From an uncultured virus (IMG/VR IMGVR_UViG_3300005098_000230) (Duplodnaviria > Heunggongvirae > Uroviricota > Caudoviricetes), in IMG/VR virus record IMGVR_UViG_3300005098_000230: a stretch of DNA of 64,000 nt; one strand, given 5' to 3'. The position numbers were made by a program, and so were the translations under genes. Below are positions 5,106 through 60,454 of this stretch, one piece after another (the first letter of the stretch is position 1; every line of letters starts with the position of its first letter). Under the pieces are notes generated by a model that saw only the letters and a list, made by a program, of their open reading frames with translations, was not told the origin of the DNA and searched no databases.

Positions 5106-5107
5106 CG

Positions 5108-5607: not shown

Positions 5608-5623
5608 CAGCTCATCACCTCCT

Positions 5624-22928: not shown

Positions 22929-23017
22929 GCAAACTTCAGCCCAGCCCAGCTCGGAGGGGCCATACACGGCCAAAGCAAAGCGGAAAACCGCAAATATCAC
23001 ACAGAAGGAGGAAAACG

Positions 23018-29141: not shown

Positions 29142-29205
29142 AATGCCGTCAACACCAGTCCATCACTGTGGATTGGTGTTTCTTCTTGGGGATCAGGAGT
29201 TGGTC

Positions 29206-32599: not shown

Positions 32600-32600
32600 A

Positions 32601-34662: not shown

Positions 34663-35162
34663 CCACTGGACTTGTCTGCAACACCGTTTTTATCCTCACT
34701 GTTGGGGCGGCAGTCATTGGTCTCCTATGGCTGGGCGGACGGGTCTATGTAGACTTGCGCAAACGGGCACAGACCATTGGCGACTTCACAGTCACCTCTA
34801 ATGGACGGGTTGTGCCTCGCAAGATAAAGGCGCAGAATGGCCAAGAGGTTATAGTGGACTTGGAGAAAGCGCCGAGTCCGCAGGTCGCCCCGGGCGACGT
34901 GGAGATGCACGCAGAGGTGCCTGAGCAGCGCAAAGCCACCGCTTTGCAAGGTCATTACTTTGCGGAAATGGCGAGGGCGACAGCCAGCAAACCCCCAGCG
35001 GGCGGGGGCGGTAATGTTATGACCTTGCTCCAAGCGGGGAGGCGGGTAATACCAGAACAGGTACGGGTAGCCTTGCCCCCCGAGGCGAGGACTGCTAAGG
35101 GGGAGTTTATAGAGGGGGAGCTCGATGGGGGAGATCGAGGTTCAGTTCCTGCCGCCGACTGA
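34647..35162 (+). CDS. Single-TM hypothetical protein
   Basis: N-terminal hydrophobic helix; GAGGAGGT RBS. Confidence 0.65.
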   Translation: MSSFVTTGLVCNTVFILTVGAAVIGLLWLGGRVYVDLRKRAQTIGDFTVTSNGRVVPRKIKAQNGQEVIVDLEKAPSPQVAPGDVEMHAEVPEQRKATALQGHYFAEMARATASKPPAGGGGNVMTLLQAGRRVIPEQVRVALPPEARTAKGEFIEGELDGGDRGSVPAAD

Positions 35163-37765: not shown

Positions 37766-37912
37766 CGATGATAGACGACAAACCTTAAAATTTTCCCGCA
37801 CCCCTTGACAGGTGCGGTTTTTTATGATAAGATTGTATTGCAGATGCAATACAGCTTCTCTCTTTTTGCCAATAAAAGAGACAAAACACCACAGGAAGGA
37901 GGAAAACGGCAC

Positions 37913-42710: not shown

Positions 42711-45700
42711 TTATTCCTCCCTCATGGCCGCCAAGCGAGCCATATACCGTTCAAAAGTACCTCGGTCGCCTGCGGGGATCAGACGAGCCTCCTGGCGGTC
42801 GGCGTCTATCTCCGCGCCCACGAGCATAAAAGTCGTGTGGCTGTCACGGAAGTCATTGGTCGAGAGGGTAGCCTCTCGTGCTCTGAACTCCCGTACCCGC
42901 GTTAGGCCACCCGCCTTGATCTCATCCACGGGCAGGCGTTTGAGATTGGCGTCGTAGATGTGTCCACGGGCCTTGAATGAGGAGGAAACGACAGGCTTCC
43001 CCTTCTCGGCGAGAGCGAGGGCGACGGCATAGAGGGCCTGCGTCTCATCAGTAGCCCCATCCACGCGAAGAGCGGTGCGACGATAGTACCCACCTAGCTC
43101 GTCTATCGCCTCCTGATTATAGGCATCAGCAGTGCGCTGTTCTTGTCCCTCTGTATCTGTATACACGGCGTACATCCGCTGGTGGCTTTGGGTCCAATCA
43201 CCTGTGACCTGCCCCTGAATAGGGGCGGAGCGGCGCACAACGTAACGGATGGTAGTCAGGTCTTGAGTCTCCAGGAAAGCACGGCGTAGGTCGTTCATCT
43301 CCACGCCCCAGGCTAGAGGGCGGCCCTGATTGTCCCCAAACTGGCAGAGCCACCTCATAATCTCTGCCGGCGTTTGGTCACTCTCGAAAACGGCGGGAGA
43401 GAGGGCACGGTTGGGTGGTTTCAGCTTCGAGGTATCTGAGGATAAACCGTGTACAGATGAAGCAAGCACGGCTACAAGGTCGGCGGCGACAACGGAGCCG
43501 TCTACCACCTCATCCTCTGCGCCCAAGACCTCCACATCGGTCAGCTCGCCGTAGACGGTATCCCCTGTTGCTGTGTTCTCACCATTAGCGGTGCAGTAGA
43601 AACGTATCTCTACATATGAAGGATCGCCCGTGGTCAGTTTGTCCAGGGTGCCCGATCCCGTTGCTGTCTCAGAGAGAAGGACCTCGCCAGTACTGGTGAG
43701 CACCTCTAGCTTACCCGGCCAGGAGTAGGGGAGCTCTAGCTTCCACGATGCACGGAACCGCTTGACTGCCTCACCAGTGGGCATAGTGTAGCGGACGTGG
43801 GTGTAATCGTTCGCGGTGTAATCCATGCCTCGGCGAGGCTTGAGGCGGATACGGTCTTGCAGATCGTAGTCGAAGGCGTCAGGGCGGAATGACCCACTAG
43901 GCTCCTCGCTTCCCTCCCAGCGGTTTAGACGTGTGTCGGAGTACACAGCGTTGTACACATCATCCTCAAAGAGAACGTTCCAGCCCAGAGCCGTAATCTC
44001 GATTTTGTCTCGGTCGGCCTGGTTCTCTGTGATTTTGCGGATTTGCCCATCAAAGAGGATGGTCGAGAGATACTTGCGCAGGATCACGCGGTAGCCGAAG
44101 TTGATGTCGGGGTAGTCATGGCCGAGCTTGCGATCAAGAGAGAACATGAGATAGCCGAAACCTGACCCCTCTGCTCCATAGTGATTTGACCAGCGCAGAT
44201 TCTGAACTTTGGTCATGCGATAAAGCCGCCCGTTGTGGTCGTAAATCTCCAATACGGGACGCACACGGCGACGCGGGCGACGCACCAATGCAGGCGGGAG
44301 TGTGGTCGTGCTTGTAGATGTACTGGTCGAAGTGGTCGAGGTGCTCGTCGAAGTAGACGTTGACGTTGAGGTGCTTGTCGAGGTCGAGGTAAGGGTTGTC
44401 GAAGTTGAGGTTGACGTGGACGTGCTCGTGGTCGAGGTTGACGTGGACGTGCTCGTGGTCGAGGTGCTGGTGCTCGTGGTGGTCGAAGTCGAGGTCGAGG
44501 TAGATGTGGATGTGGTGGTAGCCTCTGAGCAGGCGACGAAAATTCCCACGTGGAAACTGACGCCGGCAGCGTAGGTCGTGCCTGCCGGAGAGGGCAAACC
44601 GGTATCATAGTCAACCGTGTTATAGCGGGCTTGATCCCCCGCGTATGGGCTGGATGTATCCGCCGTAAGCGCGTTGGAGCCATCTCCCAGGGAAAACTGA
44701 ACGGCGATCCAGTAGTCCGTGTTGGCGGTGATGGCGTGAGATGGGACGGGCAGGGCAATGGTGCAATACCCCGCTGCAGAGATAGCCCCCTCCGCCTGCG
44801 CCAGCAAGTTGCCCGGCACCCCATTGTTGTCCGAGTAGAGGCCAACCCGCACTGCCTCCTCAATGCCATAGGTGGCAAAGTGCAAACGAAGATATATCGC
44901 CCACCCATTCGCAGTGCACCGGATCGGCTGGTACCATGTCACCTCAGCACTAGGACTGGCCGAATCTGTGAAGTTGACCAGGTCATCATTGTAGACCCAA
45001 TTATCACAAGCTAGAGTCGTCGTCGTTGACGTGGAGGTGCTGGTGGTAGTGATTGTCGTTGATGTGCTCGTCGATGTTGAAGTCGAGGTGGTACTCGTCG
45101 ACGTAGAAGTTGTCGACGTAGAGGTCGAAGTTGTAGAAGTCGACGTGCTCGTAGAAGTCGTTGTTGATGTAGAGGTAGAAGTAGAAGTCGTCGTCGAAGT
45201 AGACGTAGACGTGGAAGTTGTCGACGTACTCGTCGAGGTCGAAGTCGATGTTGATGTCGAGGTTGTCGTTGACGTGCTGGTAGAAGTCGAAGTTGATGTA
45301 GTAGATGTAGAGGTAGAAGTTGAGGTCGAGGTTGAGGTACTGGTAGAAGTTGAAGTTGTTGTAGAAGTAGACGTAGATGTGGAGGTCGTTGATGTGCTCG
45401 TCGACGTTGAAGTTGAGGTAGTGGTAGATGTCGAGGTCGAAGTAGTCGTAGACGTTGAAGTTGAGGTGGTGGTGAAATCCACGTACAAGACGGCCTTGTA
45501 CGAGCCATCACCATATTCGATTGCTCGTATCGAGCGTGTATAGCCGCTGCCACGTCCCTCCAGCGTGATGCCAATAGCATTCCCGCTGTTCCAGCCCTCC
45601 CTATCGATTATCTCCTGAACAATGTCTTTAATATCGACCGTATCATACCATTGGCCGGCGGCACCAAAAGCCGGTATGCTCCACGACTCAGTAGCCGTCG

Positions 45701-47564
45701 TTCGTGGTCGGTTTGCGTAATCAGCATGTGTAGTCCAGGTTGCAGTATCGTCCTCGTCAATCCCGTAAATATCCACCGTGCAAGAGCCACTATAAGCTCC
45801 ATATGACCACACACGGATGATGGCTTTGGTGATACCAGCCTGGGGCGGAATATCTACGTTGTCAAAGCGAAGGGCAATGTCGTAATAGATAATTTCAACA
45901 AGGCTAAAGCCACAGGTCAAAGACTGAGACGTTGTATTAAGGCTGGCCTGATCGCCATAGGCATCATCGCTGCCGGTGACGACGGGATACGCATGTGGCA
46001 ACGTCGTTGTGCTGGTCGAAGTCGAGGTACTCGTAGTCGAGGTCGAAGTTGATGTCGAGGTCGAGGTACTGGTAGAGGTAGAAGTCGTCGAAGTCGAGGT
46101 GCTGGTAGAAGTTGAAGTCGATGTAGTAGATGTCGAGGTGGAGGTTGAAGTCGTCGTCGATGTCGAGGTGGTGGTAGGATCAGTAGTATCATCGAATATA
46201 CGGCAGTGATCAAAGTACATACTGCCTGAGCTTGGCGGGCTGGTGATGGCGCAGACCCCAAAACGAGCCTCGTCAGGCGAGTAATTGGTATTGGTAATGA
46301 GACCTCCGCCCGTGAAACCAGAACCACCCTCAGAATCGTACTCTACACCTACTTGAACATCGGTTCCTATTGGCAACCTTAGCTCAAAATAATATGGGTC
46401 ATAGTTGTTGAGCGGAAATCCAGAGCCAGAATTGTTCCAGTTGCCATCATTGTCTCTGTACCAGACCCTAAGACCAAATTGTGTTGAGTCATAGTCGTAT
46501 ATCTCAACAGCGGCAATTTCAACGCCGCCATCAAAAACACGGATGGGATAGAATGACATCCCAGAGCCAACGAAATTGGAGTCTGTGAAATCTATCCAGC
46601 AGGTAAAGGCAAATGTGGTGGAAGAGGACGAGAAGTTTTTGTACCCATAGCCATCCACCGAGGAAGAACTTAATTGATAGCGTGCCCCATAAAAACCGTG
46701 GATGGCTGCATCAGCGCTTGCATCAGCCGTTACACCATTTGTCGTGACGCCATCATAGTCAGAGAGATCACCCTCTTCGTGGTCTGCAAGCCAATAAAGA
46801 GTTGTGGTCGAGGTAGAAGTAGAAGTACTGGTCGAGGTCGTGGTGGATGTGGTAGTCGAGGTCGAAGTCGAGGTGCTCGTGGAGGTGGATGTAGTAGTAG
46901 TTGGCGGGTCTTGGATACCGTTGTTGTAAATATCTGATACTTCGGATGCTGTAAGGGCACGGCTAAAGACAAATGCCTCGTCTAGTAACCCGTCCCAGTA
47001 GTAAGCGGCATTGTATCGCGTGCCGATAATGAAATCGGCTGTGTTGTTATAAATCGTCCCGCTAAACGAATCGCTATCAACCTGAGAACCGTTCTTGTAA
47101 GTGATAATATTTGAACCATCGTATACAATGACTACATGTACCCAAGTGCCAGCGCCAAAAACCCCGCTCGTATTTGTATTGGATAATGCGGATCCATCTG
47201 TGCTGTAATAGAAGCGCATAGCACCCGTGCCCAGCACGAAGACATACCAGCCATAGTTCCCAGCACCCCCCGACTTACCGACTGGAATCTCGTAGTTAAC
47301 CAGTGTCTCCGGCTTCGCCCAAAATCCTACAGACCACGCGCTGCCATCTAGGTCTAATCCTGTTTGGCTGGTATCGGCGATACTGGCATATTCCGAATTG
47401 TCCCGCTCCAGATCGAGGCTGTAGCTGCCCTGCTTATAGTCCGTATTGGAATACCCGACTGTATTGTTATCAGTCAGGTCGTTCCCATTTGCGGATGTAT
47501 CCAGCAGGTTGTTCTCAAAGCGCCACAGACCCTCAAGATCGGGATCGTTAGTGTAGATAGCCAT
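42711..47564 (-). CDS. Large tail/receptor-binding protein: LamG-like and other beta domains joined by four Thr/Ser tracts
   Basis: N-term LWRFE..WVHVVIVYDG..GLLDEAFVFSRAL (LamG); TSTS tracts; C-terminal tail-hub-like region. Confidence 0.8.
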   Translation of the reverse strand: MAIYTNDPDLEGLWRFENNLLDTSANGNDLTDNNTVGYSNTDYKQGSYSLDLERDNSEYASIADTSQTGLDLDGSAWSVGFWAKPETLVNYEIPVGKSGGAGNYGWYVFVLGTGAMRFYYSTDGSALSNTNTSGVFGAGTWVHVVIVYDGSNIITYKNGSQVDSDSFSGTIYNNTADFIIGTRYNAAYYWDGLLDEAFVFSRALTASEVSDIYNNGIQDPPTTTTSTSTSTSTSTSTTTSTTTSTSTSTSTSTTTLYWLADHEEGDLSDYDGVTTNGVTADASADAAIHGFYGARYQLSSSSVDGYGYKNFSSSSTTFAFTCWIDFTDSNFVGSGMSFYPIRVFDGGVEIAAVEIYDYDSTQFGLRVWYRDNDGNWNNSGSGFPLNNYDPYYFELRLPIGTDVQVGVEYDSEGGSGFTGGGLITNTNYSPDEARFGVCAITSPPSSGSMYFDHCRIFDDTTDPTTTSTSTTTSTSTSTSTTSTSTSTSTSTSTTSTSTSTSTSTSTSTSTTSTSTSTSTTTLPHAYPVVTGSDDAYGDQASLNTTSQSLTCGFSLVEIIYYDIALRFDNVDIPPQAGITKAIIRVWSYGAYSGSCTVDIYGIDEDDTATWTTHADYANRPRTTATESWSIPAFGAAGQWYDTVDIKDIVQEIIDREGWNSGNAIGITLEGRGSGYTRSIRAIEYGDGSYKAVLYVDFTTTSTSTSTTTSTSTSTTTSTSTSTSTSTTSTSTSTSTTTSTSTSTSTSTSTSTSTSTTSTSTSTSTSTTTSTSTSTSTSTSTSTTSTSTSTSTTTSTSTSTSTTTSTSTSTSTTSTSTSTTSTSTSTTSTSTSTSTSTTITTTSTSTSTTTTLACDNWVYNDDLVNFTDSASPSAEVTWYQPIRCTANGWAIYLRLHFATYGIEEAVRVGLYSDNNGVPGNLLAQAEGAISAAGYCTIALPVPSHAITANTDYWIAVQFSLGDGSNALTADTSSPYAGDQARYNTVDYDTGLPSPAGTTYAAGVSFHVGIFVACSEATTTSTSTSTSTSTTTSTSTSTTSTSTSTSTTSTSTSTSTSTTLTSTSTSTSTSTSTSTSTSTTSTSTSTSTTTLPPALVRRPRRRVRPVLEIYDHNGRLYRMTKVQNLRWSNHYGAEGSGFGYLMFSLDRKLGHDYPDINFGYRVILRKYLSTILFDGQIRKITENQADRDKIEITALGWNVLFEDDVYNAVYSDTRLNRWEGSEEPSGSFRPDAFDYDLQDRIRLKPRRGMDYTANDYTHVRYTMPTGEAVKRFRASWKLELPYSWPGKLEVLTSTGEVLLSETATGSGTLDKLTTGDPSYVEIRFYCTANGENTATGDTVYGELTDVEVLGAEDEVVDGSVVAADLVAVLASSVHGLSSDTSKLKPPNRALSPAVFESDQTPAEIMRWLCQFGDNQGRPLAWGVEMNDLRRAFLETQDLTTIRYVVRRSAPIQGQVTGDWTQSHQRMYAVYTDTEGQEQRTADAYNQEAIDELGGYYRRTALRVDGATDETQALYAVALALAEKGKPVVSSSFKARGHIYDANLKRLPVDEIKAGGLTRVREFRAREATLSTNDFRDSHTTFMLVGAEIDADRQEARLIPAGDRGTFERYMARLAAMREE

Positions 47565-47582
47565 CTGTCATCCTTCGTTCAT

Positions 47583-48386
47583 TCATAATGGCATCCTTGC
47601 AATTTCCTCAACTCTATTTAGGGCCTTTCCGTTCTTTCTCCCCCACACATCAAACCCGTCAGGCCACAATTCGCCCAGCTTGTTCCATGATGCAGGCCGT
47701 GCATCGGGGAGTGCCTGCTCGCGCCCATCCTTGCTGCGTGACCACCAATGCCAGACCCATGAGCGGGACGTGGCCAGCATCCTGTACCCCGCAACGTAGG
47801 CTCGACCGTTCAGGTCGTAGTCCTCCCCACTACCAGGGAAGAAGCGTTCATCGAAAAGGCCAACCTCGTCTAGCAAATCGGCGCGGAAGACGGTACACCA
47901 TGTGGTGATCCCGTCCACTACCTGCCAGTTGCGCTCCTCTTTAAGTCGCTCGATGGTCTCGGGATTCCTGGCTTCTTGTAAAGTACAATGTTGTATGTAT
48001 CCCTCTTTCCCGTACCCCCATCCGGGCTCTCTTGGGGACATTGGGTTCACCGCCAGCGCGGTTGGGAAACGCTCATAGGTCTCCATGATACCTTCCCACC
48101 ACCCCGGCAGGAACTCTACATCACAGTTGGATACAGTGATGTATTGTGTCGGCGCAAGGCGGATACCGAAATTGCTGGCCTGGGCAAATCCATAGTTCTT
48201 CTTCGTTTTGATATGCAGGTCGCAGAGTTGCCGGAGCTCATGCTCGAACACACCGCTGGGGCGTGTCTGGTCTACCACGATCACCTTGAAGTTCGGCGGT
48301 GTATACTCGTGCAAAGTCTGCAATGCTCGCAGGATGTAGTCTGTTCTGATGATCGGAAACACTACCGTATTGACAATCTCAGCCAA
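47583..48386 (-). CDS. GT2 glycosyltransferase
   Basis: VIVVDQ, GFAQASN, SNCDVE, FDERFFPGSGEDYD. Confidence 0.9.
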   Translation of the reverse strand: MAEIVNTVVFPIIRTDYILRALQTLHEYTPPNFKVIVVDQTRPSGVFEHELRQLCDLHIKTKKNYGFAQASNFGIRLAPTQYITVSNCDVEFLPGWWEGIMETYERFPTALAVNPMSPREPGWGYGKEGYIQHCTLQEARNPETIERLKEERNWQVVDGITTWCTVFRADLLDEVGLFDERFFPGSGEDYDLNGRAYVAGYRMLATSRSWVWHWWSRSKDGREQALPDARPASWNKLGELWPDGFDVWGRKNGKALNRVEEIARMPL

Positions 48387-49269
48387 AGCACACCTCGTTG
48401 ATCTTTTGCATCATTCGCTCCAGCGAGTAATGGTCGGCGATATAGGCGCGGTACTCCGCTGGGTTATAATCCCCGCCTTTGATCATCCGCTTCGCCTCAC
48501 ATAATACACGCCAACGGTACTTATTAGGCCAGATGTCAGCCGCCCCGTAGAAGTCGTGGATCACCGGCTTGAGACCCTTCGCCATCCCCTCGGCGGCGGC
48601 GTAGGAAAAAGCCTCCTTTTTGCTAGTCACGAGGATCACGGACTTATCCTCGTACCATGCGTTAATGTCATCCACGTGTGCCGTGCGGATCAGGTTGGGC
48701 GGGGCCATGTGCTGGTAATAGGCTCGGTACCAGTTCTCCATGCCGTCTTTCCCCAAGACGTGGAACTCGTAGTCAGGCATCATCAGCGCCAGTTGTAGCA
48801 GGTAGTCTATCCCCTTCCCATGCCACAGCCTCATCACCACCGCAACCTTGTTGTTCCTCACTGGATTTTGGCGCATGGTGAACCGCTGGAGGTCTACACC
48901 GCAGGGGATGTGATGAATGCGTAGCTCTTCAGGGAACTTGTAACGGCTCATGGCGTTTTCTCTGATATGCCTGGCGATGAAAATGAGGTCGCCGACGACC
49001 GACCAGTCTACCCGGCAAAAATAACCAACCCAGATGTCAATATCTATTCCTCGTGCAACAACTCGCTTATTTTTCAATAGGTCATAATATTGCGTAGACG
49101 CAAGAACTAGGTTGCCATCCACGCAGTCGAACCACAAAAGATCGGCCCACTCCGCGTCAGGGCGATGGAATGTATAGCGGTTTCTCACTTCATGCCCCTG
49201 CGCCCGCCAGCAGTCCATCATGTCGCGGGTGAACTTGAAGAGGTTTGAGTCGAAAACGGCTATCTTCAT
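48379..49269 (-). CDS. GT4 glycosyltransferase
   Basis: PCGVDL, KGID, SKKEAFSYAAAEGMAKG. Confidence 0.85.
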   Translation of the reverse strand: MKIAVFDSNLFKFTRDMMDCWRAQGHEVRNRYTFHRPDAEWADLLWFDCVDGNLVLASTQYYDLLKNKRVVARGIDIDIWVGYFCRVDWSVVGDLIFIARHIRENAMSRYKFPEELRIHHIPCGVDLQRFTMRQNPVRNNKVAVVMRLWHGKGIDYLLQLALMMPDYEFHVLGKDGMENWYRAYYQHMAPPNLIRTAHVDDINAWYEDKSVILVTSKKEAFSYAAAEGMAKGLKPVIHDFYGAADIWPNKYRWRVLCEAKRMIKGGDYNPAEYRAYIADHYSLERMMQKINEVCFG

Positions 49270-49991
49270 GGTAGCGGCTCCCATGTGTCAGGATCGCACT
49301 CGATCTCGTCGTAATGTTCTGGCAGTGGCCAGATGGGACGATGGCCGTGTTCCTCTGGTTGCATGTCGGCGGGATACCCCCAATTCTCCCCGAACATGTG
49401 CCAGCAACGGACGTCACGGGCATAGCCGACAGAGAGACCAACCTGGTGCAACCTATCGGCGATCCACCGCTCCTCGTTGTCTCGGCCTGGGATTTTCTCG
49501 TGCCGCCAGCCCCCCACCATGCGCACCGCATCGGTACGCATAATCCGCAATGAGGCCCCCACCCACGGCCTGCACACTACCCGATCAGCTCCCTCGAACA
49601 AGTCCCCTCTCTCACCCACCAAAACCTGCGGACGGCAAGCTATCGCCCCGTAACTCGGAAAATCCTTCATCAAGCCAATTAGCTGCGCCACCCAATCAGG
49701 TGTAAGGTTGGGGGCAAGAATATCGTTGTCGGTGTCTATGAAAAACGGCTCGGACTCCACCAGCGAGAGGGCAATGTTTTTGGCATAGTGGATACCACAG
49801 TTAGCGTCAAGAGCCACCAAAATTCCCACATGGGAACTCTGCGCTAACCACTCCCGCGTCCCATCGGTGGACCCATTATCCACCACGATCAGGCGATAGG
49901 GCACTCGGGTGCGCTCTGCGATATGCTGGATGGCTTTCTTGGTGTACTCCAGGCGCTGGAATGTGACCATCGTGATGTCTATACCGTTCAC
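49266..49991 (-). CDS. GT2 glycosyltransferase
   Basis: VVDNGSTDGT, DTDND. Confidence 0.9.
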   Translation of the reverse strand: MNGIDITMVTFQRLEYTKKAIQHIAERTRVPYRLIVVDNGSTDGTREWLAQSSHVGILVALDANCGIHYAKNIALSLVESEPFFIDTDNDILAPNLTPDWVAQLIGLMKDFPSYGAIACRPQVLVGERGDLFEGADRVVCRPWVGASLRIMRTDAVRMVGGWRHEKIPGRDNEERWIADRLHQVGLSVGYARDVRCWHMFGENWGYPADMQPEEHGHRPIWPLPEHYDEIECDPDTWEPLP

Positions 49992-50000
49992 CGTTCATCC

Positions 50001-50768
50001 TCACCTCACGTGCTGGATGTAGAGCAGAAGATCAAGCGGGATGCTCTGAAACTTGCGCGTAATCCGGTAGAACATGAGCCAATCATCGCCCCAGGGGTTG
50101 CCCAGCGACCCAGCGTGCCCCAATTTCTTCTGCGGCGGGTATGGGTACAGGTGATGCACATCTGTGGCCAGCTCGTGCAGCTTGTATGGGCTGGACGCAA
50201 AGGGGAGACTGCCTATCTCCTCATACACTTCGCGGTGAAAAACGAACGAGCCTGTGCCTATGTGTCCTGACTTGAATTCCTCATGTCTTCCCTCGGACAC
50301 AATCCACTTGGGGCGAAACGTCGGTCGGATGCTGGTGCGGTAGATCACGCGCTGCCCATCGTAGTTGATCCATTTGCGATGGTAGAGGATCGCGCCGAAG
50401 TTGAAGCACTTAGCGTTGGGATAGACCCACATGGCGTGCTCCAGCGCCTCCAAGTACACGCTGACGTACTCGTCGTCGTCATCCAACCAGCAAATCCACT
50501 CGCCCACGGCGGCGGTCATGCCTACATTCCGGGCCGCGCATCGCCCTGGGCTATTTTCCAAGTGGATCACGTAGAAACGGTTATCGCGGAGTTTTGCTAC
50601 CACCTGGTCTACTGAGCCATGTTCAGGCGTGGTGTGGTCATCCACTATGATCACCTCGAATCCACCGAACGTCTGCTTTTGCAAGCTCAGCAGAGCGCGG
50701 GGTAGGGTAGTATCTGCCCTGTTATGGGTGGGCACCACTATGCTGAATTTAGGATACCTTCCCATCAC
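50001..50768 (-). CDS. GT2 glycosyltransferase
   Basis: VVPTHNR, IIVDD, ARNVG, WLDDDD. Confidence 0.9.
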   Translation of the reverse strand: MMGRYPKFSIVVPTHNRADTTLPRALLSLQKQTFGGFEVIIVDDHTTPEHGSVDQVVAKLRDNRFYVIHLENSPGRCAARNVGMTAAVGEWICWLDDDDEYVSVYLEALEHAMWVYPNAKCFNFGAILYHRKWINYDGQRVIYRTSIRPTFRPKWIVSEGRHEEFKSGHIGTGSFVFHREVYEEIGSLPFASSPYKLHELATDVHHLYPYPPQKKLGHAGSLGNPWGDDWLMFYRITRKFQSIPLDLLLYIQHVR

Positions 50769-50917
50769 TCACTCCTTTTCCAAACCTTCTCCACCTGGGC
50801 CCCTGGGGGGAGAGGCCCAGGCGAGGTAGGTGGAGCCGGCCCGACTCGAACGGGCTTCCTGGAGGGGTTGACCGAGTTTGGCATTGCCTCCAGTCGAACA
50901 CCAGTCGCGGCCCCACA

Positions 50918-52183
50918 TCATGGCACCTCTGCGTAGAGCAGAGGCTCAAGATAATCCCTGAACACAGCGTGGGGATTGCGAGTGCGCCTGATGCGGTTGC
51001 GTTGGGCGAGGGTAAGGTTGGTGGACAACTCGTAGAGAATACGCCCCGCAACCTCCCGCATGTATGCCCCCTCGTTGGCGTACTCAGTGCGCGTTTCACC
51101 GTCATTGCCAGTCATAGCGTCTATGTTCGATGAGAACTTGCGATAGATCGCCTTCTCGCCATACACCGAGCGAATCGGTGGGAAGTCAAAGTTGAGGACC
51201 AGGAGATTGCCGCACAGGGCGGCCTCCTGCGCCACCAGGCTGTACGTCTCAGAGCGTGATGGCAAGATGAACACATCGGCTACCAGCATGAGATCGCGCA
51301 CCATCTGGCGCGGACAGCCGACGTGAAGATCAGGGTGTAACTGAGAGGTGAAGAGTACTTCTTCCCCGACTCCCATCCTCCGCGCGAGGCTGCCCAGCTC
51401 CTCACGGTACACCACCTTGTCTCCGCCTGTGGAATGGAAGTCCATTACCAGTAGGCGGCAGGAGCGCCCCAGCCGTTTGATTTCGGCGAAAATCTTGATG
51501 CACACCTCCACCTGTTTACCCCGGTCTAGGCGGCAGGGGTAGACTCCAATTACCTCGGCTCCCAAGAATGCACCATTGGAGAATAGCTCCCTTGTCAGCG
51601 GATGCCAGTCCAGGAAAGCCGCAGGGTCGGTGACGTGAGGCACGCACACAATCCTGTCCTCAGCATAGCCAAAGTTACGGGATAAGCGCGGGTGCTCGTA
51701 CTCGTTGGGATAGACCAGCAAGCTATGAGGGAACACTCGCTTGATGTGTTTGAGCTGGGGATAATCGCGTTGGAGGATGCTGGGCGCGGTCGCAGAGTGG
51801 ACCCAGTGCAACCACACCATGTCCGGCCTATCCTCAGCGATGCGACGGGCGGCGAAGTTCTCGGGCAGGCTGGCGGGCTGGTAGATCAAATCATGAGTGA
51901 GGACGGCCTTGACGCCCTCCAGCGCGGGCCGGAGCGCGGCCTCAACTTGGGCAACGTGTTCCTCTTTGGGCGGCCTGGGGTTGTTAGACCTCGGCACATT
52001 GGGGATGAAAGCAAGGTCAACGTCGGGGTGCGCGTACATCCCCGCTGGACGGAACCCCTCGCAGACGATCACGCGAGGGGTGTACCCCCCACTGATCAGC
52101 ATGGAGATTTGCGTCTCCACGACGTTGTTGAGAGAATAACATTCATCTCTCTGGGTGAAGTTGGTGAGAATTGCTACTTTCAT
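50918..52183 (-). CDS. GT4 glycosyltransferase
   Basis: CRLDRGK, PSRSETYSLVAQEA. Confidence 0.85.
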   Translation of the reverse strand: MKVAILTNFTQRDECYSLNNVVETQISMLISGGYTPRVIVCEGFRPAGMYAHPDVDLAFIPNVPRSNNPRPPKEEHVAQVEAALRPALEGVKAVLTHDLIYQPASLPENFAARRIAEDRPDMVWLHWVHSATAPSILQRDYPQLKHIKRVFPHSLLVYPNEYEHPRLSRNFGYAEDRIVCVPHVTDPAAFLDWHPLTRELFSNGAFLGAEVIGVYPCRLDRGKQVEVCIKIFAEIKRLGRSCRLLVMDFHSTGGDKVVYREELGSLARRMGVGEEVLFTSQLHPDLHVGCPRQMVRDLMLVADVFILPSRSETYSLVAQEAALCGNLLVLNFDFPPIRSVYGEKAIYRKFSSNIDAMTGNDGETRTEYANEGAYMREVAGRILYELSTNLTLAQRNRIRRTRNPHAVFRDYLEPLLYAEVP

Positions 52184-52190: not shown

Positions 52191-55112
52191 CTACTCCCTG
52201 AATGGAAAGATGGTACGGTAAAGAGCGCGAAGCTCCACGCCTATCTGATCACTGGGCACATGCTCTCCTGCCAGATTGGTGATAGTGACATCGGTAAATC
52301 GTGGTTTGAGATCGCAGCCGCTATCGGCGATGGAGATAAGGCCGGCGTAACCAGAGCTGTGTGTCGTATCAGTTACATGGAACACGCGCGAGCCAATGCT
52401 GAACAAGTCATCTTCTGCATCACTGACAAAGCCAGAGATGGTGGAACCGCTGACCCGCACACCGAGCCAGTATTCGGTGTTTAGATCAACTGTCATGTTC
52501 ACGGGAGCCGCAACGTTCAACCGGCTCCCACTTACCCACTTCACCAGTCGCACTTGGTTGGCACCAGTGGCCAGCATCAGCGCATACATATTCTCTGCCC
52601 CAGGTGTCCCATCGCTGCACCGGAAAACGATGCCCAGCTCACCCTCTGAGCCGGTGGTCTGGGTGTAGTGCTCCAGGGCTTTTACGCGGGCTTTGATTTC
52701 CACATCATCAGTAGGCTGCGTAGCGTATAGAGCAACCTTCTCCACGCCATTCTCAGCGTCTATCTGGGCCAACCGCTTTGTTGCTCCTCCCTGCTCCTCG
52801 ATGTGCCAATGACCAGAGGGAAAGTCCCAATCGTCCCCTGTCTCGTTGAAGGTGGTGGCATCGTCTGGGTCGGCTTTGGAGATGCGCAGATCATCAACAA
52901 GGAGTCGGGGTCGCGCGGCTGTAGGATCAACGTTGGTTGTCGTTGCTCCCGCGCTCACCACCACGCCGTAGACATGACCGTAGTGGGTGTTACCATCATA
53001 CGTGTCCAGCACAAACACGTGGTATGTGCCTGCTGCCAGATTGCTGAAACTGTACGTGCCGTTAGCTGCATCAGACGTTGTGCTTGCGTAGACTGTACTT
53101 TTGTCCCCTGAGAGCAGATACACGGTCGCATTAGTCCACGGGATGAGATTCGCTCCGCTCCAGATCATGGCCACGCCTGAGATTCCACCCGTGCCCGTAG
53201 GCGGGCTTGTTACGCTGGGCGTAGGTGTTGACCAGGAAACGCGGATAGCACTGATGCTAGACCAGTTGACGCCGTTGTCCACAGCGTCTGATAGCTTCAT
53301 AGATTGGGGCACGAAACCGCCGTACTGGCCGCGATAGGGGACGCCGTTGAAATCAAACCGGGCGTAGGCGCTGTTGTAGACCGTGTCCAGGTAGACATCA
53401 ACGTCAATGTCTATCAGTAGAGGATTGGATAAGGCAATGCAGAGGAAGTCGCTGGTGGTGAACATACCGCCACCCGTGACATCTTTAGGTTTAGGTGTGG
53501 TGAATTGCTTGTATGCTGTGAGGTCTGGATACAGACTATTAGCATTCACACCATCCTGATCGGCGGAGTTCCATTCTACGAAGTCGTCTGTTTCTCTGCT
53601 TGCATTAGTCATTACCTCATCAAATGCGAAGACCGGCATCCAGTTATAGTCTTCGTAGCCATCAAACCCCTCATCATCCAGCAGTGTACTGCCCCCAATG
53701 CGCTCCCACAGCAAGTCAACGCGGTTAGTGAAGCGAGGGTCGAGTGTGAGAAAGTCAGTGCCCAGGGGCGTTGCCAGTCTTAGGAATTGGAGAGTGTCCT
53801 GGCTCACGATATGACAGACCTCCCCAGAGAAACTCTCCAAAAGAAGTTTCTCGTTGTTATCCACTCCCTCACTACCGCAATCTATCTGGAGCACATGCTC
53901 ATCCACTGGTAGGAGCATGAGGAAGTCAATGTCGAAAGAGGAGTTGTCAGTGGTAGAGTCACCAGCAGCCCGGGTAACACGAACATCTATGTAGGCAGCG
54001 ATAGATTCGCTATCGGACACCTCAGTGGGCGGCATCTCGACCTCACCAATGATGAAAACCATGAAAGTCCCAGTGCCAGAGAGGTAATTCACCCCTGGGG
54101 TGATGGACTGAATTACCTCACCGGCGCGGTATTGGGCATCTATCGTCCAGTTGGCGCGGTCGGCGTCGTTGACGCGGGCGACGATAGCGAGGGCCATACG
54201 CCCCCGATGGTAGGCTTCATTGGCGATGGTGAACCGCAGAGCTTGGGCAACACCGTTCCACCCGCTTCCAAACGAGGCACGCTTGTAGTAACCCCTGTTG
54301 CGGCTGGCGTCGGACACATCTGACCAGACAGCGCCAGTAGATACATCGGCGGCATCGCGAGCATCGTAGATGCTCACGAACTGGTCGAGGCCGGCAGTGC
54401 GGCGGGCAAGCCAGAGCGTACCGATTGCCTCACTAGCCCCCGTTTGGAGGTTGCGGATCCGAAGCTGGCATAGGGCAGGACTATCGCCCCCAATCTCAGA
54501 TGAGGCAACAGTGAAATAGTTATATCTTCCAGCACTGGGGTCGTAACCGTTGTGCAGAATGGTGCGGTTGAGGGTGAGGGAAACAGGATTGTCAGGGTCG
54601 GAGGTCGCGTAGGGCTGGGTGTTGAGCGTCACATCCACGTTGAGAGCATAGACGTAGTTGGGACAGGTTTGGACAGGCGCAGCATCCCAGTTGTTTCCGC
54701 TGGCACGAGCAAGGCGTGGGACAGGACTCATCAAGTAATGGTAGTAGGTGCTACGGACACTGGCGTCCAAGTCGTCGGGTTTGTACTCCAGGGTGCCGCC
54801 GTCTGGATTGGTCACGGCCTGGCGCAGGGCATGGACTCGCTGTATCAGACTGGCTCGCGCTGCCGCAGCAGTAGCGCCGACACCGTGAACCACCACTCGA
54901 AAACTCACCTCCACCAGTGGGCCGTGGTAGCTGGACAGATCACCGCCGTCCATCCTCGGTCCCTCGGACAAGGCAATCTCCAGTCGCTTCTCCTCATTGA
55001 GGGTGAGGGTGGCAAGGTTTACCACGTAGTCCTCTACAGTCGGGTCGGCTCCAGATGCAGGAAGCAGGTCAATGTCAGACAGACCTTCAGGGTGAAGGAT
55101 CAGGATTGTCAT
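52191..55112 (-). CDS. Minor tail protein (distal-tail-like with inserted beta/carbohydrate-binding domains)
   Basis: Directly follows TMP; beta-rich; GTYSFSNLAAGTYHV module. Confidence 0.7.
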   Translation of the reverse strand: MTILILHPEGLSDIDLLPASGADPTVEDYVVNLATLTLNEEKRLEIALSEGPRMDGGDLSSYHGPLVEVSFRVVVHGVGATAAAARASLIQRVHALRQAVTNPDGGTLEYKPDDLDASVRSTYYHYLMSPVPRLARASGNNWDAAPVQTCPNYVYALNVDVTLNTQPYATSDPDNPVSLTLNRTILHNGYDPSAGRYNYFTVASSEIGGDSPALCQLRIRNLQTGASEAIGTLWLARRTAGLDQFVSIYDARDAADVSTGAVWSDVSDASRNRGYYKRASFGSGWNGVAQALRFTIANEAYHRGRMALAIVARVNDADRANWTIDAQYRAGEVIQSITPGVNYLSGTGTFMVFIIGEVEMPPTEVSDSESIAAYIDVRVTRAAGDSTTDNSSFDIDFLMLLPVDEHVLQIDCGSEGVDNNEKLLLESFSGEVCHIVSQDTLQFLRLATPLGTDFLTLDPRFTNRVDLLWERIGGSTLLDDEGFDGYEDYNWMPVFAFDEVMTNASRETDDFVEWNSADQDGVNANSLYPDLTAYKQFTTPKPKDVTGGGMFTTSDFLCIALSNPLLIDIDVDVYLDTVYNSAYARFDFNGVPYRGQYGGFVPQSMKLSDAVDNGVNWSSISAIRVSWSTPTPSVTSPPTGTGGISGVAMIWSGANLIPWTNATVYLLSGDKSTVYASTTSDAANGTYSFSNLAAGTYHVFVLDTYDGNTHYGHVYGVVVSAGATTTNVDPTAARPRLLVDDLRISKADPDDATTFNETGDDWDFPSGHWHIEEQGGATKRLAQIDAENGVEKVALYATQPTDDVEIKARVKALEHYTQTTGSEGELGIVFRCSDGTPGAENMYALMLATGANQVRLVKWVSGSRLNVAAPVNMTVDLNTEYWLGVRVSGSTISGFVSDAEDDLFSIGSRVFHVTDTTHSSGYAGLISIADSGCDLKPRFTDVTITNLAGEHVPSDQIGVELRALYRTIFPFRE

Positions 55113-58100
55113 GCAATACCTCCAGGAACAGCAGCGCGGGCAGTGGCCACGTCAACGCTGGCTTGAATCTCCGTCAAGAAATCGCGGGCATCGCGCCCAT
55201 CGCGCACGCCAGGGAACACTGGGTTTTGGATGTAGATAACAGTAGACGAACCTCCTGCTCCAGCCACAGCAGGAGCGAGGGCAGGCATGGCAGGCGTGAG
55301 ACTAGCATGGAAGCGTGACATGGCAGCCTCCAACCGGGGCACGGAAGTGCGGATGCTGGCAATAAGCGGGTCGGGTGCAAGAGACTCCCAGCGAATGGGG
55401 ACTGAGAGCGGACCCGTCTTCGCTGGCGAGTGAGGGAATCTGTCGGCCACCTGGCCCAATACATCAGCCAGAGGCCCAAGTCGGGATTTGATCCCCTCGA
55501 TGAGATTGTTGATCAGGTTTGCCCCCCAATCTTTCATCCGCCCCACGAGCTCGGCGAAGATTTTTTCGAGTTTGTCTCCCAAGCCCGCGAATATCGCCAG
55601 CATGTCGTCCACGAGGTCTGGGATGATGCTGCCCCCAACAAGGTCGTGGTAGAGGTTCTCGAAGAAGCCAATGATACCTTGAATGACTTGCTCAATGATG
55701 GTCAACACTATCGTCTTGAGCTGCATGAAGGTGGTCTCGATGTCTCGGCGCAGTTTGGTTATGACACCACCAGAGCCGGTGATGGCGATCCATAATCCCT
55801 CCAACAGGCCCAGCAGGGTACCACATAGCGCCTCGATCAGGCCGAGCACGACCCGTGATGCGCCTTCCAGCATGTCACTCAAACCTTGCCAGAGTTCATC
55901 CCATAGTTGGTGAGCGCGTGCTTTGGCCCCCTCTAAATCCCCAGTCAGAACTTTGTAGAGGATTTCAAGAGCACCGACAAACCCTCCAACCATGACTGCA
56001 ACAAGTCCACCCAGATATTGCACCAGTCCACCCAGCGCCTCACCGAGACCAGGCAGGGCAGCACCGATGGCGTTGAGCGCAGCAAGGAGAGTACCAGCCA
56101 GCAGAAGCGCGAGATACCCTAAGAGTTTGAGCAGATCGCGCAGGGCGTTATCCCACGACCGCAAGCTCTCAACGTGCAGGTTGGAGACGAAGCCCTTAGC
56201 CCCCTCAACAAGTGTGTTGAAAACGAGCGTGAGCCGGTCGCCAGCAGCCTCCAGTTGGTCAAGGTAGGGGATTTTCCTCTTGAGATCGTCGAGCCAGTTG
56301 GTAAGCCTCTCGGCCAGAGTGGTGGGCAGGGATTGGAGTGCTGCTTTCCACTCCGCGATCATCTCCCGCGCTTTCTGCCTGGCTTCCTCGAACCGTTCAG
56401 AAAGCGTGCTGGAGATGGAGAGAAGTGAACCCATCTCCTCCGTTCCTGTGACCTCGGGTTTGATGGCGGGTCGAGCCTTCACCTCTTCTGGTAGCTCCAG
56501 ATCAATTTTGAGAGGGGTTTTGGAAATCTTTTTAAGGGCCTTCTCGATGCCCTCCAGCGTGTGTAGGAGTTCCAACTGGAGATCAAGGCCGGCCTGCCGC
56601 TGTTGTAGGAACTTCTCTTGTAGTGCCAGTTGCTCACCAGCAGCATCGGCCTCTTTCTGAGCAAGAGAGAGCTTCTTCTTGAGCTCAGCGGGTACGAAGC
56701 CTTTGGCCTCTGCCTCAGCTACTTCATCCTGCACGGCCTTGAGCTTGTCCTGTGCCTGGGTGAACTTCATTTGAAGTTCAAGGAGCTTGGCCAGCTCATC
56801 GCCGCCTTCGCCCAGCGCCTCAGCAAACTTGCGCAGGGACTCAGTGGGTATTTGCCCTGTGCGCCTGAATTCGTCTATTAGGGCGGCCACCTGAGCACGG
56901 GTCTCAGCGATCTTGCCGGGGAGCTTCTCAATGGGGATTTCGTGCATCTGAGCCAGACCACGCAGGTACCGCTCAATAGGTTGCAGTGACCTCTCTAGGA
57001 TGCTATAGTCAGCCAGAGAGAAGCCCCGCAGATAGGTCTCCATCAAGTTCTGCGCCCAAATGATGATGTCCTTTAGCGGACCTTCTTTGGGCGGGGAGAA
57101 AGAGGCCAGGAAGTTGGAGATGGTTTGGCCAACGTAGTTCATCGCAGCCTGAATCGCATCAGCCACACCATTGATGATCCCTTGTGCGTAGCTGGCGATC
57201 AGGTTGTAGCCCCAAGTGAGAGCACGGGATACCCAGTCCTCCCAGATAATAATGATCATAGCCAGAGCGTTTTCCATGACCTGCTGGAGGTTGGCAGTAG
57301 CGGCAGGGAAATCGCCCTGTAGGGCATGGATGACAGCGTTGATCACCAAGAGCACATTGCTCAACCCTACACGAACGAGCTCCAGGAAGCGTTGCCACGT
57401 TTCTGCGAGACTGGGCAAGCCAGATTGAGCCTGCATCATCATTCCAAAGCCAGTCGCAGCCTCTTTTACCCGTTGGATGACACCACCAATAGCAGTCCCC
57501 AGGGTAGACAGAAGCCGTTTCAGCGCATCCAGAATCTGGGGTAGCTTGAAGCCCAAGACAGAGCGCAGCTGGTCAAGGTAGGGCTGGGCCTGAGTCCATC
57601 CAGATTGGATTGTGGAGACAATGCCGCCGAAGAACTCCTTGAACTTGCCCCATCCTCCCATCACCGCTGATTTGATACCCTCAGTGAATTTGCGGATCGA
57701 GGGGCCAATCTTGTCGAAGAGCTTTTTGATGGACTTCAACACATCAGTGAGGATCAGCACCGCAGTAGACAGCAAGGGGATGAAACCGCGACCGATGGCG
57801 AGCTGCGCCTCCTCGATGTACCGGGGGAGAGAGCCTAGCTGCTTACCCACCGACCCCATCGCTTTCTCGTAAGCGCCGGCGTAGGGGGCGGCCTTCTCCA
57901 AGATAGCATTCATCATGGCCTGCTGGCGCTCGCTTGCCGTCAGTGCATCGGCAGTTTTGCCTATGGACTTAGCGTACTTATCCGCTATCTCAGAGGCATA
58001 GATATTGATGCCAATGGCACGGAGAAGCTCTGTGTTGCCGCTCAGAATAGCGTATGTGAACCGCTGGAAAACTTCTGAGGAGTTGCGCCCGAAAACGACG

Positions 58101-60436: not shown

Positions 60437-60454
60437 AGTAGGCACACCTCCTTG

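Follow-up and report, generated by a model that had tools for sequence, protein, structure and literature searches.

Why five glycosyltransferase (GT) genes should lie between two tail genes of an uncultured virus is the question raised by the locus described here. It lies in a window of 64,000 nucleotides, the whole stretch of DNA that we analysed, from a contig of 73,355 nt. In the direction of transcription the genes run GT4-GT2-GT2-GT4-GT2 (47583-52183, minus strand), with a 973-aa tail protein gene in the position of the distal tail protein (Dit; 52191..55112, minus strand) on one side and a reading frame that stays open over 1617 aa (42711-47564, minus strand) on the other. A preliminary description, made from the sequence alone, had placed these five enzymes in this order between two tail genes; all five pass the Pfam gathering scores, and the order is as it stated. 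The upstream edge of the tail-tip block is formed by the gene for a 1178-aa tape measure protein (TMP; 55109..58645, minus strand), for which 12 of the 15 matching PHROG families are annotated as tail length tape measure protein (best phrog_58, E 1.3e-25). The TMP gene and the 973-aa gene share a 4-nt overlap. From the latter through the GTs the spacing is -19 to +18 nt, with a single exception of 149 nt. The GT genes lie in the late tail operon, either adjoining tail genes of the same strand or overlapping them.

Homologues of the 973-aa protein are encoded between TMP and tail-tip hub in two related phages (34% identity in G002, 26% in G310). The protein has carbohydrate-binding-like inserts and weak Pfam matches to SdrD_B and CarboxypepD_reg, below cut-off, and no Sipho_tail or SPP1_Dit match was obtained in Pfam at E up to 0.01. 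An Atlas feature search returned Dit families at 0.79-0.80, which we treat as a lead; it is this score and the position of the gene that point to a Dit role.

The 1617-aa protein contains four almost pure Ser/Thr (S/T) tracts, all encoded on the minus strand and delimited here from the translation. They span 34 aa (aa 222-255, 46800-46901; T22 S12), 58 aa (aa 464-521, 46002-46175; T34 S24), 153 aa (aa 698-850, 45015-45473; T90 S62 and one Ile) and 73 aa (aa 1016-1088, 44301-44519; T42 S30 and one Leu), the last running straight into the C-terminal hub domain, and together they hold 316 Ser or Thr in 318 residues. Their positions had already been given correctly to within 1-2 bases and the length of the longest as about 150 aa, and the claim that each ends in TTTL holds for all four (STTTL, STTTL, TTTTL and STTTL, from tract 1 to tract 4). 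All four Thr codons are present in every tract and all six Ser codons are used across the tracts. Apart from two exact repeats (27 nt x 2.2 and 6 nt x 2.5), Tandem Repeats Finder detected only short imperfect ones in the tract DNA (64-90% match). Because codon usage is varied and there are almost no exact repeats, the tracts were rightly described as using mixed synonymous codons. Even with a looser criterion (11 of 15 residues), S/T tracts within the window are confined to this reading frame.

The remainder of the protein was assigned by fold and domain searches. Its C-terminal 529 aa (42711..44300, minus strand) gave an AF2 model with pLDDT 84.2, for which the top Foldseek matches in the PDB were the T5 tail tip, the diffocin baseplate, Mu gp44, the PVC spike and the lambda tip (E 8e-11 to 1e-8); by sequence, no Pfam or PHROG family matched this domain. 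The modelled fold identifies the 1617-aa protein as a tail-tip hub (Tal, gp27-like fold), predicted to form trimers, and the position of its gene after the TMP and Dit-position genes fits Tal. Both features are shared with T5 pb3, Mu gp44, lambda gpJ and the diffocin and PVC hubs. In classical Tal hub proteins the hub is N-terminal and the extensions are C-terminal, whereas here the hub is C-terminal and is preceded by an extension of 1088 aa, made up of lectin- or CBM-like modules joined by the four tracts. The first module (aa 1-221; 46902..47564, minus strand) is concanavalin A-like (PF13385 Laminin_G_3, E 1.2e-26), and the second (208 aa; 46176..46799, minus strand) matched no Pfam family at E up to 1. 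The third (176 aa; 45474..46001, minus strand) possibly is a CBM96-like carbohydrate-binding module; it had no Pfam match, and the lead comes from Atlas features at 0.95-0.97 with CBM96 clusters among the matches. The fourth (165 aa; 44520..45014, minus strand) matched PF18560 Lectin_like weakly, below cut-off (E 0.004), and is conserved in the sister phage G002, where a matching LACD...ACS module stands ahead of the last tract. The protein had been read as a multi-domain fibre. It is a multi-domain tail protein but not simply a fibre, since its C-terminus is a Tal/baseplate hub by fold and its tracts and lectin-like modules are N-terminal. The hub domain has 29 metagenome relatives, which bear zero, one or several N-terminal modules.

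The five enzymes, all encoded on the minus strand and all assigned above the Pfam gathering score, are a 421-aa GT4 (50918..52183; PF00534, 32.0 bits, cut-off 26.4), a 255-aa GT2 (50001..50768; PF00535, 81.6 bits; DDDD at 96-99), a 241-aa GT2 (49266..49991; PF00535, 46.2 bits; DTDND at 86-90), a 301-aa GT4 (48379..49284; PF00534, 38.7 bits, cut-off 26.4; EX7E at 224-232) and a 267-aa GT2 (47583..48386; PF00535, 53.8 bits; only DYD at 189). Catalytic motifs were found in four of the five; two of the three GT2s carry DXD, and a motif scan found none at the usual place in the 267-aa enzyme. None of the five has a TM-like segment (maximum Kyte-Doolittle 19-residue mean 1.27), and by this prediction all are soluble glycosyltransferases. 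The 421-aa GT4 was modelled with pLDDT 92.8 as a two-Rossmann GT-B fold whose top Foldseek matches were BshA, MshA, SPS and WaaG, and its EX7E motif (E312-x7-E320) is invariant in 40 sequences. This fold is generic, and BshA and MshA, the solved structures closest to it, have small molecules rather than proteins as substrates; the GT folds, as modelled, leave the acceptor unspecified. Membership of the 301-aa GT4 in the GtfA/SdgA family was considered and rejected, as its NCBIfam scores were far under cut-off (22.3 bits against SdgA, NF047880, cut-off 800; 18.8 bits against GtfA, TIGR02918, cut-off 574.6).

One candidate acceptor is a polymer of the host cell surface, altered in lysogenic conversion or as a superinfection block and unrelated to the tail protein. 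PHROG labels the cassette GTs 'moron / host takeover', with weak matches that include GtrB-like O-antigen conversion families (N-terminal GT2 half only, E 1e-4 to 3e-6), and their best NCBIfam matches are polysaccharide GTs, all far below cut-off. The phage may also be temperate, because it has a serine recombinase. However, the GT genes share the late tail operon with structural genes and overlap them. GtrABC conversion employs a membrane-bound bactoprenol glucosyltransferase and a flippase, whereas TM segments are absent from the GTs here and a Pfam search found no flippase, polymerase or polyprenyl-phosphate transferase in the 64-kb window. Nor does such a role predict the strict pairing with S/T tracts described below, and we regard it as quite unlikely.

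The preliminary description had named co-occurrence of tract-bearing tail proteins and GT clusters across phages as a check, and among the relatives of the hub the two do occur together. Four loci have an S/T tract together with sufficient upstream sequence (the window, L002, L008 and L016); in all of them GT genes lie directly upstream of the hub gene, and each has there a full member of the family of the 421-aa GT4. Hub relatives that lack a tract (L001/L011, L010, L003/L004, L012 and L017) have upstream GT genes in 0/5 cases. The whole 58.7-kb G001 record contains no GT2 or GT4 match, against nine in G002 (73,811 nt), seven of them above the Pfam cut-off. The GTs of the window and of G002 share 42-53% identity, above TMP (31%) and the Dit-position protein (34%), and the cassette of G002 includes a sulfotransferase-like gene. 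The phage G310, complete at 77 kb, belongs to the same group as that of the window (TMP 32%, hub 42% and phosphoesterase 44% identity); its whole genome lacks the cassette, any member of the GT4 family and any S/T tract. These comparisons suggest that acceptor tracts and cassette behave as a single unit, gained and lost together.

A further group of GTs, absent from the preliminary description, lies in the head module of the window. The corresponding pair is kept in tract-less G310 and therefore has another target; the head-module group is not tied to the tracts. Its presence lends some weight to a different proposal, in which the cassette glycosylates other virion proteins and the tracts are bare flexible linkers travelling along. 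There is precedent in mycobacteriophages Che8, Corndog and Myrna, where phage GTs are reported to glycosylate capsid and tail tube subunits at their C-termini (Freeman et al. 2023, as related in PMC12619734 and PMC12363180). However, the C-termini of the capsid protein (62989-63969) and major tail protein (59825-60445) of the window are not S/T-rich, and G310 retains capsid, tail and head-module GTs yet has neither cassette nor tracts. Pairing of tract and GT4 also recurs across phages with unrelated structural proteins, as the survey below indicates, and we consider this proposal unlikely.

The 421-aa GT4 belongs to a large family of at least 533 clusters at 50% identity, with at least 98 relatives in IMG/VR; the 421-aa protein and two other members, used as tblastn queries, had no match in 50,697 GenBank phage records. 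We screened 80 IMG/VR loci encoding such relatives for tracts, defined as at least 17 S/T in 20 residues within a frame of at least 100 aa. A tract was present in 55/80 loci. The frame cut-off had been loosened once the data were known (at least 150 aa gave 42/80), and it was applied identically to both controls. Random IMG/VR loci carried one in 1/120 (GC 0.61) and 1/114 (GC 0.41) cases, or 2/234 over 2.24 Mb in total. Fisher's test against the first control gave p = 2e-28, a value that overstates independence, given the relatedness among the test loci. All 141 tracts at the GT4 loci are on the same strand as the GT, and the nearest lies at a median distance of 1273 nt. No tract was found within the DNA screened at the other 25/80 loci. 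In each of three long records without a nearby tract (G003, G004 and G007), S/T or poly-T tracts are present at other places in the genome, and two fragmentary ones (G005 and G006) still yielded none. In Planctomycetota genomes a tract stood beside the GT in 2/2 strong matches and 0/6 weak matches.

Where tract carriers could be named they were virion proteins, namely a cement protein, a minor tail protein/Sipho_Gp37 and lectin modules. The structural proteins of these phages are unrelated, with Tal hub in 2/80 of the loci, TMP in 6/80 and capsid in 0/80. Relatives of the other cassette enzymes occurred in the same 80 loci: the 255-aa GT2 in 46/80 (after the GT4), the 241-aa GT2 in 43/80, the 267-aa GT2 in 26/80 and the 301-aa GT4 in 18/80. 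Among 15 GT4 fusions selected for length, seven included a GT2, two a sulfotransferase and two a methyltransferase (one with both GT2 and methyltransferase).

It may be that tracts and GTs are both merely common in the variable tail-tip regions of some lineages, with no relation of enzyme to substrate. The controls were drawn from random viral loci rather than from tail modules, and many test loci are mutually related, both of which leave room for such a by-product. However, tail-tip regions of the same hub family that lack tracts also lack GTs (0/5, and G310). The pairing is kept in 25/29 GT4 clusters at 60% identity, which have at least one tract locus (4/29 have none), and it extends to cases in which a capsid cement protein, not a tail protein, carries the tract. 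A by-product is thus very improbable.

Glycosylation of phage DNA as a hypermodified base, evading restriction, is the classical role of phage GTs (as described in PMC12619734). However, the cassette lies in the tail module rather than the replication module, and a DNA target leaves the pairing with S/T tracts unexplained. Unlike phage DNA-glycosylation systems, the window has no gene for hydroxymethyl-pyrimidine synthesis, neither a hydroxymethylase nor a thymidylate-synthase-like gene, among its 76 ORFs by Pfam, about 9.3 kb of the contig being outside the window. We judge this role extremely unlikely.

We propose instead that the cassette O-glycosylates the tracts in the cytoplasm, which would leave the tail tip with a mucin-like brush, and we put the probability of this reading at roughly three in four. 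The evidence for it is entirely gene neighbourhood and co-occurrence. That phage GTs act on tail-protein tracts was the core of the preliminary description, and every comparative test that we ran supports it (4/4 against 0/5 hub relatives; G310 with neither; 55/80 against 2/234 loci). Since enzymes and S/T runs come and go as one, it is very probable that the phage decorates its own tail tip with sugar.

In the cytoplasm of the infected cell, the 421-aa GT4 would add the first sugar to Ser/Thr hydroxyls of the tracts. This enzyme is our candidate for the initiating peptide O-glycosyltransferase because of the family-wide pairing with S/T tracts. The other four enzymes of the cassette would then extend the glycan; the order of these genes is conserved, and extending GTs are fused with the GT4 in relatives. 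If densely glycosylated, the tracts would become extended, mucin-like rods, resistant to proteases, that keep the carbohydrate-binding modules at a distance from the tail tip. Mucins span about 0.25 nm per residue, at which the tracts could reach up to about 80 nm per chain. We infer that such a brush might stiffen or shield, as had been suggested.

Dense O-glycosylation is the usual fate of long S/T runs, as in eukaryotic mucins and the Pro/Thr linkers of bacterial cellulases. The tracts resemble such linkers in being long S/T runs between folded carbohydrate-binding modules. Mucin-type linkers receive their sugars in the secretory pathway or outside the cytoplasm, from enzymes of GT27, GT39 and other families, whereas the candidate enzymes here are phage-encoded soluble GT4 and GT2 proteins. 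The serine-rich-repeat and Ser-Asp-repeat adhesins of Gram-positive cocci are glycosylated in the cytoplasm, by GtfA/GtfB and SdgA/SdgB, with further GTs extending the glycans. These are likewise soluble GT4-type enzymes encoded beside a protein with long Ser-rich repeats, but their product is a secreted adhesin, whereas here it would be part of the virion; no accessory Sec genes were found in the window by Pfam. Streptococcal membrane proteins with S/T-rich disordered regions provide a further example of mucin-type O-glycosylated linkers, according to PMC12041528.

Virion glycosylation by phages is so far known from experiment for a few mycobacteriophages only, in which it is reported to shield the particles from antibodies (PMC12363180, PMC12619734). 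As described in these papers, Che8, Corndog and Myrna resemble the present phage in having GTs, here candidate ones, for their own structural proteins, with genes that travel with structural genes. They differ in the acceptor: the C-termini of capsid and tail tube there, and here, as a candidate, 318 residues of S/T tract in a tail-tip hub. Their glycans have been shown on virions, whereas the present system is predicted from genes. A cassette GT2 queried against the 50,697 GenBank phage records matched 44, with only generic partial matches and none under Mycobacterium, in a collection that may not include Che8 and Corndog. This locus and those related to it suggest a different form of virion glycosylation, apparently widespread, with mucin-like tracts on tail tip or capsid and a GT4 family that has no match in those records.

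We lean slightly towards a broader interpretation, that the 421-aa enzyme represents a large family specialized in peptide O-glycosylation, whose members initiate the mucin-type modification of S/T tracts in the bacterial cytoplasm. Tract and cassette would then form a mobile 'mucin cassette' that passes between unrelated phages and becomes joined to cement proteins of the capsid, to tail hubs, to fibres or to small tract proteins that stand alone. In that case, virions coated with glycan would be widespread in environmental phages and not a peculiarity of mycobacteriophages, and the surface chemistry, adsorption, stability and particle-particle or particle-mucus contacts of many such phages would depend on glycans that are invisible in genome annotation. 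Acceptor tag and enzymes would also make a compact toolkit for cytoplasmic O-glycosylation.

We additionally observed that the gene call in the source record had shortened the 1617-aa protein to 501 aa, a truncation that, if the proposed reading is right, would signal a systematic annotation error.

Pfam and PHROG annotation identify the window as phage DNA. Its minus strand carries genes for a lambda-E-type major capsid protein (62989-63969), a major tail protein (59825-60445), a tape measure protein (55109-58645), a terminase (13638-15350) and a portal protein (11115-13133), and its plus strand carries a serine recombinase, two ParB-like proteins, an actin-like segregation protein and an FtsK-like ATPase. 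No near DNA match was present among 50,697 GenBank phage records, in which the capsid protein retrieved only matches of 25-27%, in Streptococcus phages. The source contig is 73,355 nt long in the protein collection, and approximately 9.3 kb of it falls outside the window.

The tail-tip protein is encoded by an uninterrupted open reading frame of 1617 codons (42711-47564, minus strand). The C-terminal 529 residues have counterparts in 29 metagenome proteins (25-60% identity), and an AlphaFold model of this region (pLDDT 84.2, built on 25 of the 29 relatives) matched the tail-tip hubs of T5, Mu, lambda, diffocin, PVC and T4 (gp27) in Foldseek with E values of 8e-11 to 1e-4. Because the modeled C-terminus matches known tail-tip hubs, the 1617-aa protein is, on structural prediction, a Tal/baseplate hub and hence a virion protein. 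The hub is preceded by an extension of 1088 aa; in relatives, nothing, one module or several modules stand N-terminal to it. The extension contains a Laminin_G_3/concanavalin-like module (E 1e-26), a module that matched no family, a module placed near CBM96 carbohydrate-binding modules by a protein-language-model search (0.95-0.97; a lead only) and a module with a weak Lectin_like match (E 0.004), and these are separated from one another or from the hub by four tracts of Ser and Thr (S/T tracts). Between the tape measure and glycosyltransferase (GT) genes, a gene encoding 973 aa (52191-55112) occupies the Dit position and has homologs at the same position in sister phages, and a PDB sequence search with its product returned no match. 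Only this position and a weak Atlas lead hint that the protein may be Dit.

The preliminary description reported that the 1617-aa protein has four Thr/Ser tracts that each end in TTTL, and this was borne out. The tracts are 34, 58, 153 and 73 residues long, 316 of their 318 positions are Ser or Thr, and every one ends in TTT followed by Leu. All four Thr codons are present in each tract and all six Ser codons are used across them, while DNA repeats within the tracts are short and imperfect (64-90% match), with exact exceptions of 27 nt x 2.2 and 6 nt x 2.5. Because synonymous codons are mixed and the DNA repeats are mostly imperfect, the composition of the tracts appears to be maintained at the protein level, in agreement with the earlier proposal of selection on the protein rather than DNA slippage. 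TTT ends 67 of 107 dereplicated tracts from the window and 80 related IMG/VR loci (L022-L101, see below), and the tract is followed by Leu in 38 cases, by Val in 18 and by Ile in 8; TTT plus an aliphatic residue may be a boundary or recognition signal. The gene call in the protein collection (P0002, 42711-44213) covers just 501 aa of the 1617-aa frame. It starts at a Met within the first strands of the hub, which are conserved and modeled with confidence, and is therefore truncated. Gene callers seem to cut such proteins short because of their S/T tracts.

The five genes directly upstream of the hub gene (47583-52183, minus strand) exceed the Pfam cut-offs for GT4, GT2, GT2, GT4 and GT2 in order of transcription (421, 255, 241, 301 and 267 aa), and they abut or overlap one another and the flanking tail genes, exactly the wedge between two tail genes that had been described. 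No TM-like segment was found in any of the five, and they are soluble enzymes of the late operon. The model of the first enzyme, the 421-aa GT4 (50918-52183), has a GT-B fold (pLDDT 92.8), with BshA, MshA, sucrose-phosphate synthase and WaaG as its nearest structural matches, and the EX7E motif of the enzyme is invariant. It therefore looks like an active retaining GT4 by prediction, with a fold that is silent on the acceptor. The 301-aa GT4 (48379-49284) has its best NCBIfam matches to SdgA and GtfA, which are O-glycosyltransferases of repeat adhesins, but these fall far under the cut-off and indicate resemblance, not membership. PDB sequence searches returned one weak match for the 301-aa GT4 and none for the 421-aa GT4, and a profile of the family of the latter (the GT4 family) retrieved generic GT4 enzymes only. 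No hydroxymethylase, flippase, polymerase, polyprenyl-phosphate transferase or nucleotide-sugar synthesis gene was detected by Pfam in the 64-kb window; the sugar donors would be host nucleotide sugars.

Two sister phages, both with terminal repeats and rated complete, allowed the cassette and the tracts to be compared. G002 (73,811 nt) has the five GTs in the same order as the window at 42-53% pairwise identity, and its tape measure protein (31%), Dit-position protein (34%) and hub (42%) are also related. A second GT pair, in the head module, is common to both phages at 32-34% identity; beyond these genes they have little in common. G310 (77,079 nt) belongs to the same group as the window, as seen from its tape measure protein (32% identity), hub (42%), phosphoesterase (44%), head-module GT pair (32-35%) and capsid protein (22%). 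Its Dit-position gene leads straight into a hub gene encoding 749 aa. The G310 genome contains no five-GT cassette, no GT4-family member and, even at a relaxed threshold, zero S/T tracts. Because G310 keeps the head-module GTs, it is the tail cassette that goes with the tracts, gained or lost together with them, and the head-module enzymes do not.

In the window, this head-module group (1095-8937, minus strand) falls between the portal gene and the capsid gene, the latter following on the minus strand beyond the window start, where the portion of the contig outside the window lies. It comprises a GT2+GT4+GT4 fusion of 1078 aa (1095-4331), a GT4 (5914-6885), a methyltransferase (7188-7733) and a PF01663 phosphodiesterase (7723-8937). 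A pattern scan with the 1078-aa fusion retrieved G002 and G310 only. Since the GT pair of this module is kept in the tract-less G310, it must have a target other than the S/T tracts.

The distribution of tracts and GTs was also compared across relatives of the hub. A scan of IMG/VR with a single hub sequence found nothing, but the hub alignment, run against IMG/VR, JGI metagenomes and GTDB genomes, yielded 17 loci. Four hubs with an S/T or poly-Ser tract had enough upstream DNA (the window, L002, which is the hub locus of G002, L008 and L016), and GT genes lie immediately upstream in all four. The first of these GTs is in each case a full-length member of the GT4 family (51% identity for L002; hhalign E 9e-79 for L008 and 2e-88 for L016). 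In contrast, none of the five tract-less hubs (L001/L011, L010, L003/L004, L012 and L017) has upstream GTs, and the whole 58.7-kb record behind L001 has no PF00535 or PF00534 match, compared with nine in G002, seven of them over the Pfam cut-off. The tract loci L006 and L007 were left out of this score because upstream DNA was missing.

The co-occurrence of tract-bearing proteins and GTs, which had been suggested as a check on the initial proposal, was also found starting from the enzyme. A query alignment pairing the 421-aa GT4 with its G002 ortholog retrieved at least 98 relatives from IMG/VR, of which 80 loci with GT4s of 27-52% identity were kept. By a criterion of at least 17 Ser/Thr in 20 residues, applied to stop-to-stop frames of 100 aa or more, a tract was present at 55 of the 80 loci. 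All 141 tracts are on the same strand as the GT4, and the nearest is a median of 1273 nt from it (within 2 kb at 35 of the 55 loci). Two sets of random IMG/VR loci drawn by arbitrary 14-mers served as controls, and a tract was found at 1 of 120 (median GC 0.61) and 1 of 114 (median GC 0.41). The initial criterion, with frames of at least 150 aa, had given 42 of 80 and missed small tract-tailed proteins; the frame limit was lowered after the data had been seen, and both controls were scored by the final criterion. A looser criterion of 18 in 30 residues was rejected because 8 of 120 controls then yielded noise frames. Grouped by sequence identity (60%) rather than by phylogeny, the GT4s, including that of the window, form 29 clusters, and 25 of these have at least one tract locus. 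The remainder of the record was examined for five tract-negative loci with full flanks on both sides. S/T or poly-Thr tracts occur at distances above 10 kb in each of the three long records (82, 94 and 142 kb), and the two fragments (31 and 27 kb) contain none. The same system takes an extreme form in two viral records of 82-94 kb (G003 and G004; L033, L034 and L337-L344), each of which has 11 GT2 matches and encodes proteins of 900-1300 aa with S/T tracts as long as 418 residues.

The proteins that carry the tracts differ from locus to locus. Those that could be named are virion proteins: a capsid decoration protein (Phage_cement_2), minor tail proteins (phrog_538/Sipho_Gp37) and proteins with Laminin_G_3 or Kelch/galactose-binding modules. 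At many loci (L039, L041, L043-L045, L047-L053, L057, L059, L061 and L065), one to three small proteins immediately precede the GT4, approximately 0.4-5 kb upstream of it. Their frames are approximately 100-220 aa, with a short N-terminal domain that contains a D/N-G-x-x-W motif and a pure C-terminal S/T tail that reaches the stop codon or nearly so; five of them (from L041, L043, L044 and L053) were scanned without a Pfam or PHROG match. Related structural neighbors are rare among the 80 loci (hub in 2, Dit-position protein in 2, tape measure protein in 6, capsid protein in 0), which argues that the cassette is mobile among unrelated phages. Relatives of the 255- and 241-aa GT2s follow the GT4 at 46 and 43 of the 80 loci, and tblastn found relatives of the 301-aa GT4 at 18 and of the 267-aa GT2 at 26. 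A pattern scan with the 301-aa GT4 had found only G002, whereas tblastn found the 18, so the limit was the pattern method. Tracts are present at 19 of the 28 loci without a detectable relative of the other four GTs, which makes the 421-aa GT4 the best candidate for a tract-specific step.

We propose that cytoplasmic O-glycosylation of the Ser/Thr residues of the tracts is begun by the 421-aa GT4, and that the other cassette GTs would extend the glycan. The product would be a stiff brush, resistant to proteases, on which the lectin-like modules are displayed. It may instead be that the enzymes act on other virion acceptors, host surface polymers or DNA, or that tracts and GTs are merely co-located; the fold of the 421-aa GT4 does not point to any one acceptor and 25 of the 80 loci have no nearby tract, yet the loss of both features in G310 and the low control frequencies favor the tracts, and we consider these alternatives unlikely even when taken together. 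O-glycosylation of the tracts would be a variant on known phage virion glycosylation. Phage GTs are known to glycosylate mycobacteriophage virions (as summarized in PMC12619734 and PMC12363180), where the acceptors are the C-termini of capsid and tail tube proteins, whereas here the predicted acceptor is the S/T tracts of a tail-tip hub. We found no paper describing the pairing of S/T or poly-threonine tracts with phage glycosyltransferases.

The GT4 family is large: a search of 1.84 billion representatives at E up to 1e-30 gave 533 clusters at 50% identity. Three diverse members had no relative in GenBank phage records. Among 15 fused forms picked for length, the GT4 is joined to a GT2 in seven, a sulfotransferase domain (Sulfotransfer_2) in two and a methyltransferase in two, one of which has both GT2 and methyltransferase. 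The G002 cassette includes an extra gene of 228 aa (L002 4393-5079, equivalent to G002 49075-49761) with a weak Sulfotransfer_3 match (E 1e-5, below the cut-off). Together with the Sulfotransfer_2 fusions, this gene makes sulfated glycans possible in some family members.

Eight of 301 sampled Planctomycetota genomes matched the GT4 family (E up to 1e-20). A tract lies next to the gene in the two strong matches and is absent from the six weak matches (E 1e-29 to 1e-39). One Planctomycetota genome (G151) carries a GT4-plus-poly-Thr pair, and two hub loci (L016 and L017) are on short contigs binned into one Pirellulales MAG and one Planctomycetota MAG; these are a hint of a Planctomycetota/Pirellulales host for the window phage, not an assignment.

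The window also encodes a plasmid-like maintenance set of ParB, an actin-like ALP segregation protein, an FtsK/SpoIIIE-like ATPase and a second ParB-HTH protein, together with the serine recombinase (22919-24418, 32472-33596, 35125-36627, 37805-38845 and 29143-30825, plus strand), and the phage may be temperate or plasmid-like. A GACGG-rich tandem repeat (18279-18463, 58 nt x 3.2, 91% match) and a second repeat (19542-19733, 106 nt x 1.8, 97% match) lie in a stretch with an AT skew of 0.31 and reduced GC, and these may represent iterons or regulatory DNA close to the partition genes. Next to the terminase region, positions 16308-17963 encode a radical SAM protein of 551 aa with weak matches to PA0069/Rv2578c-type families.
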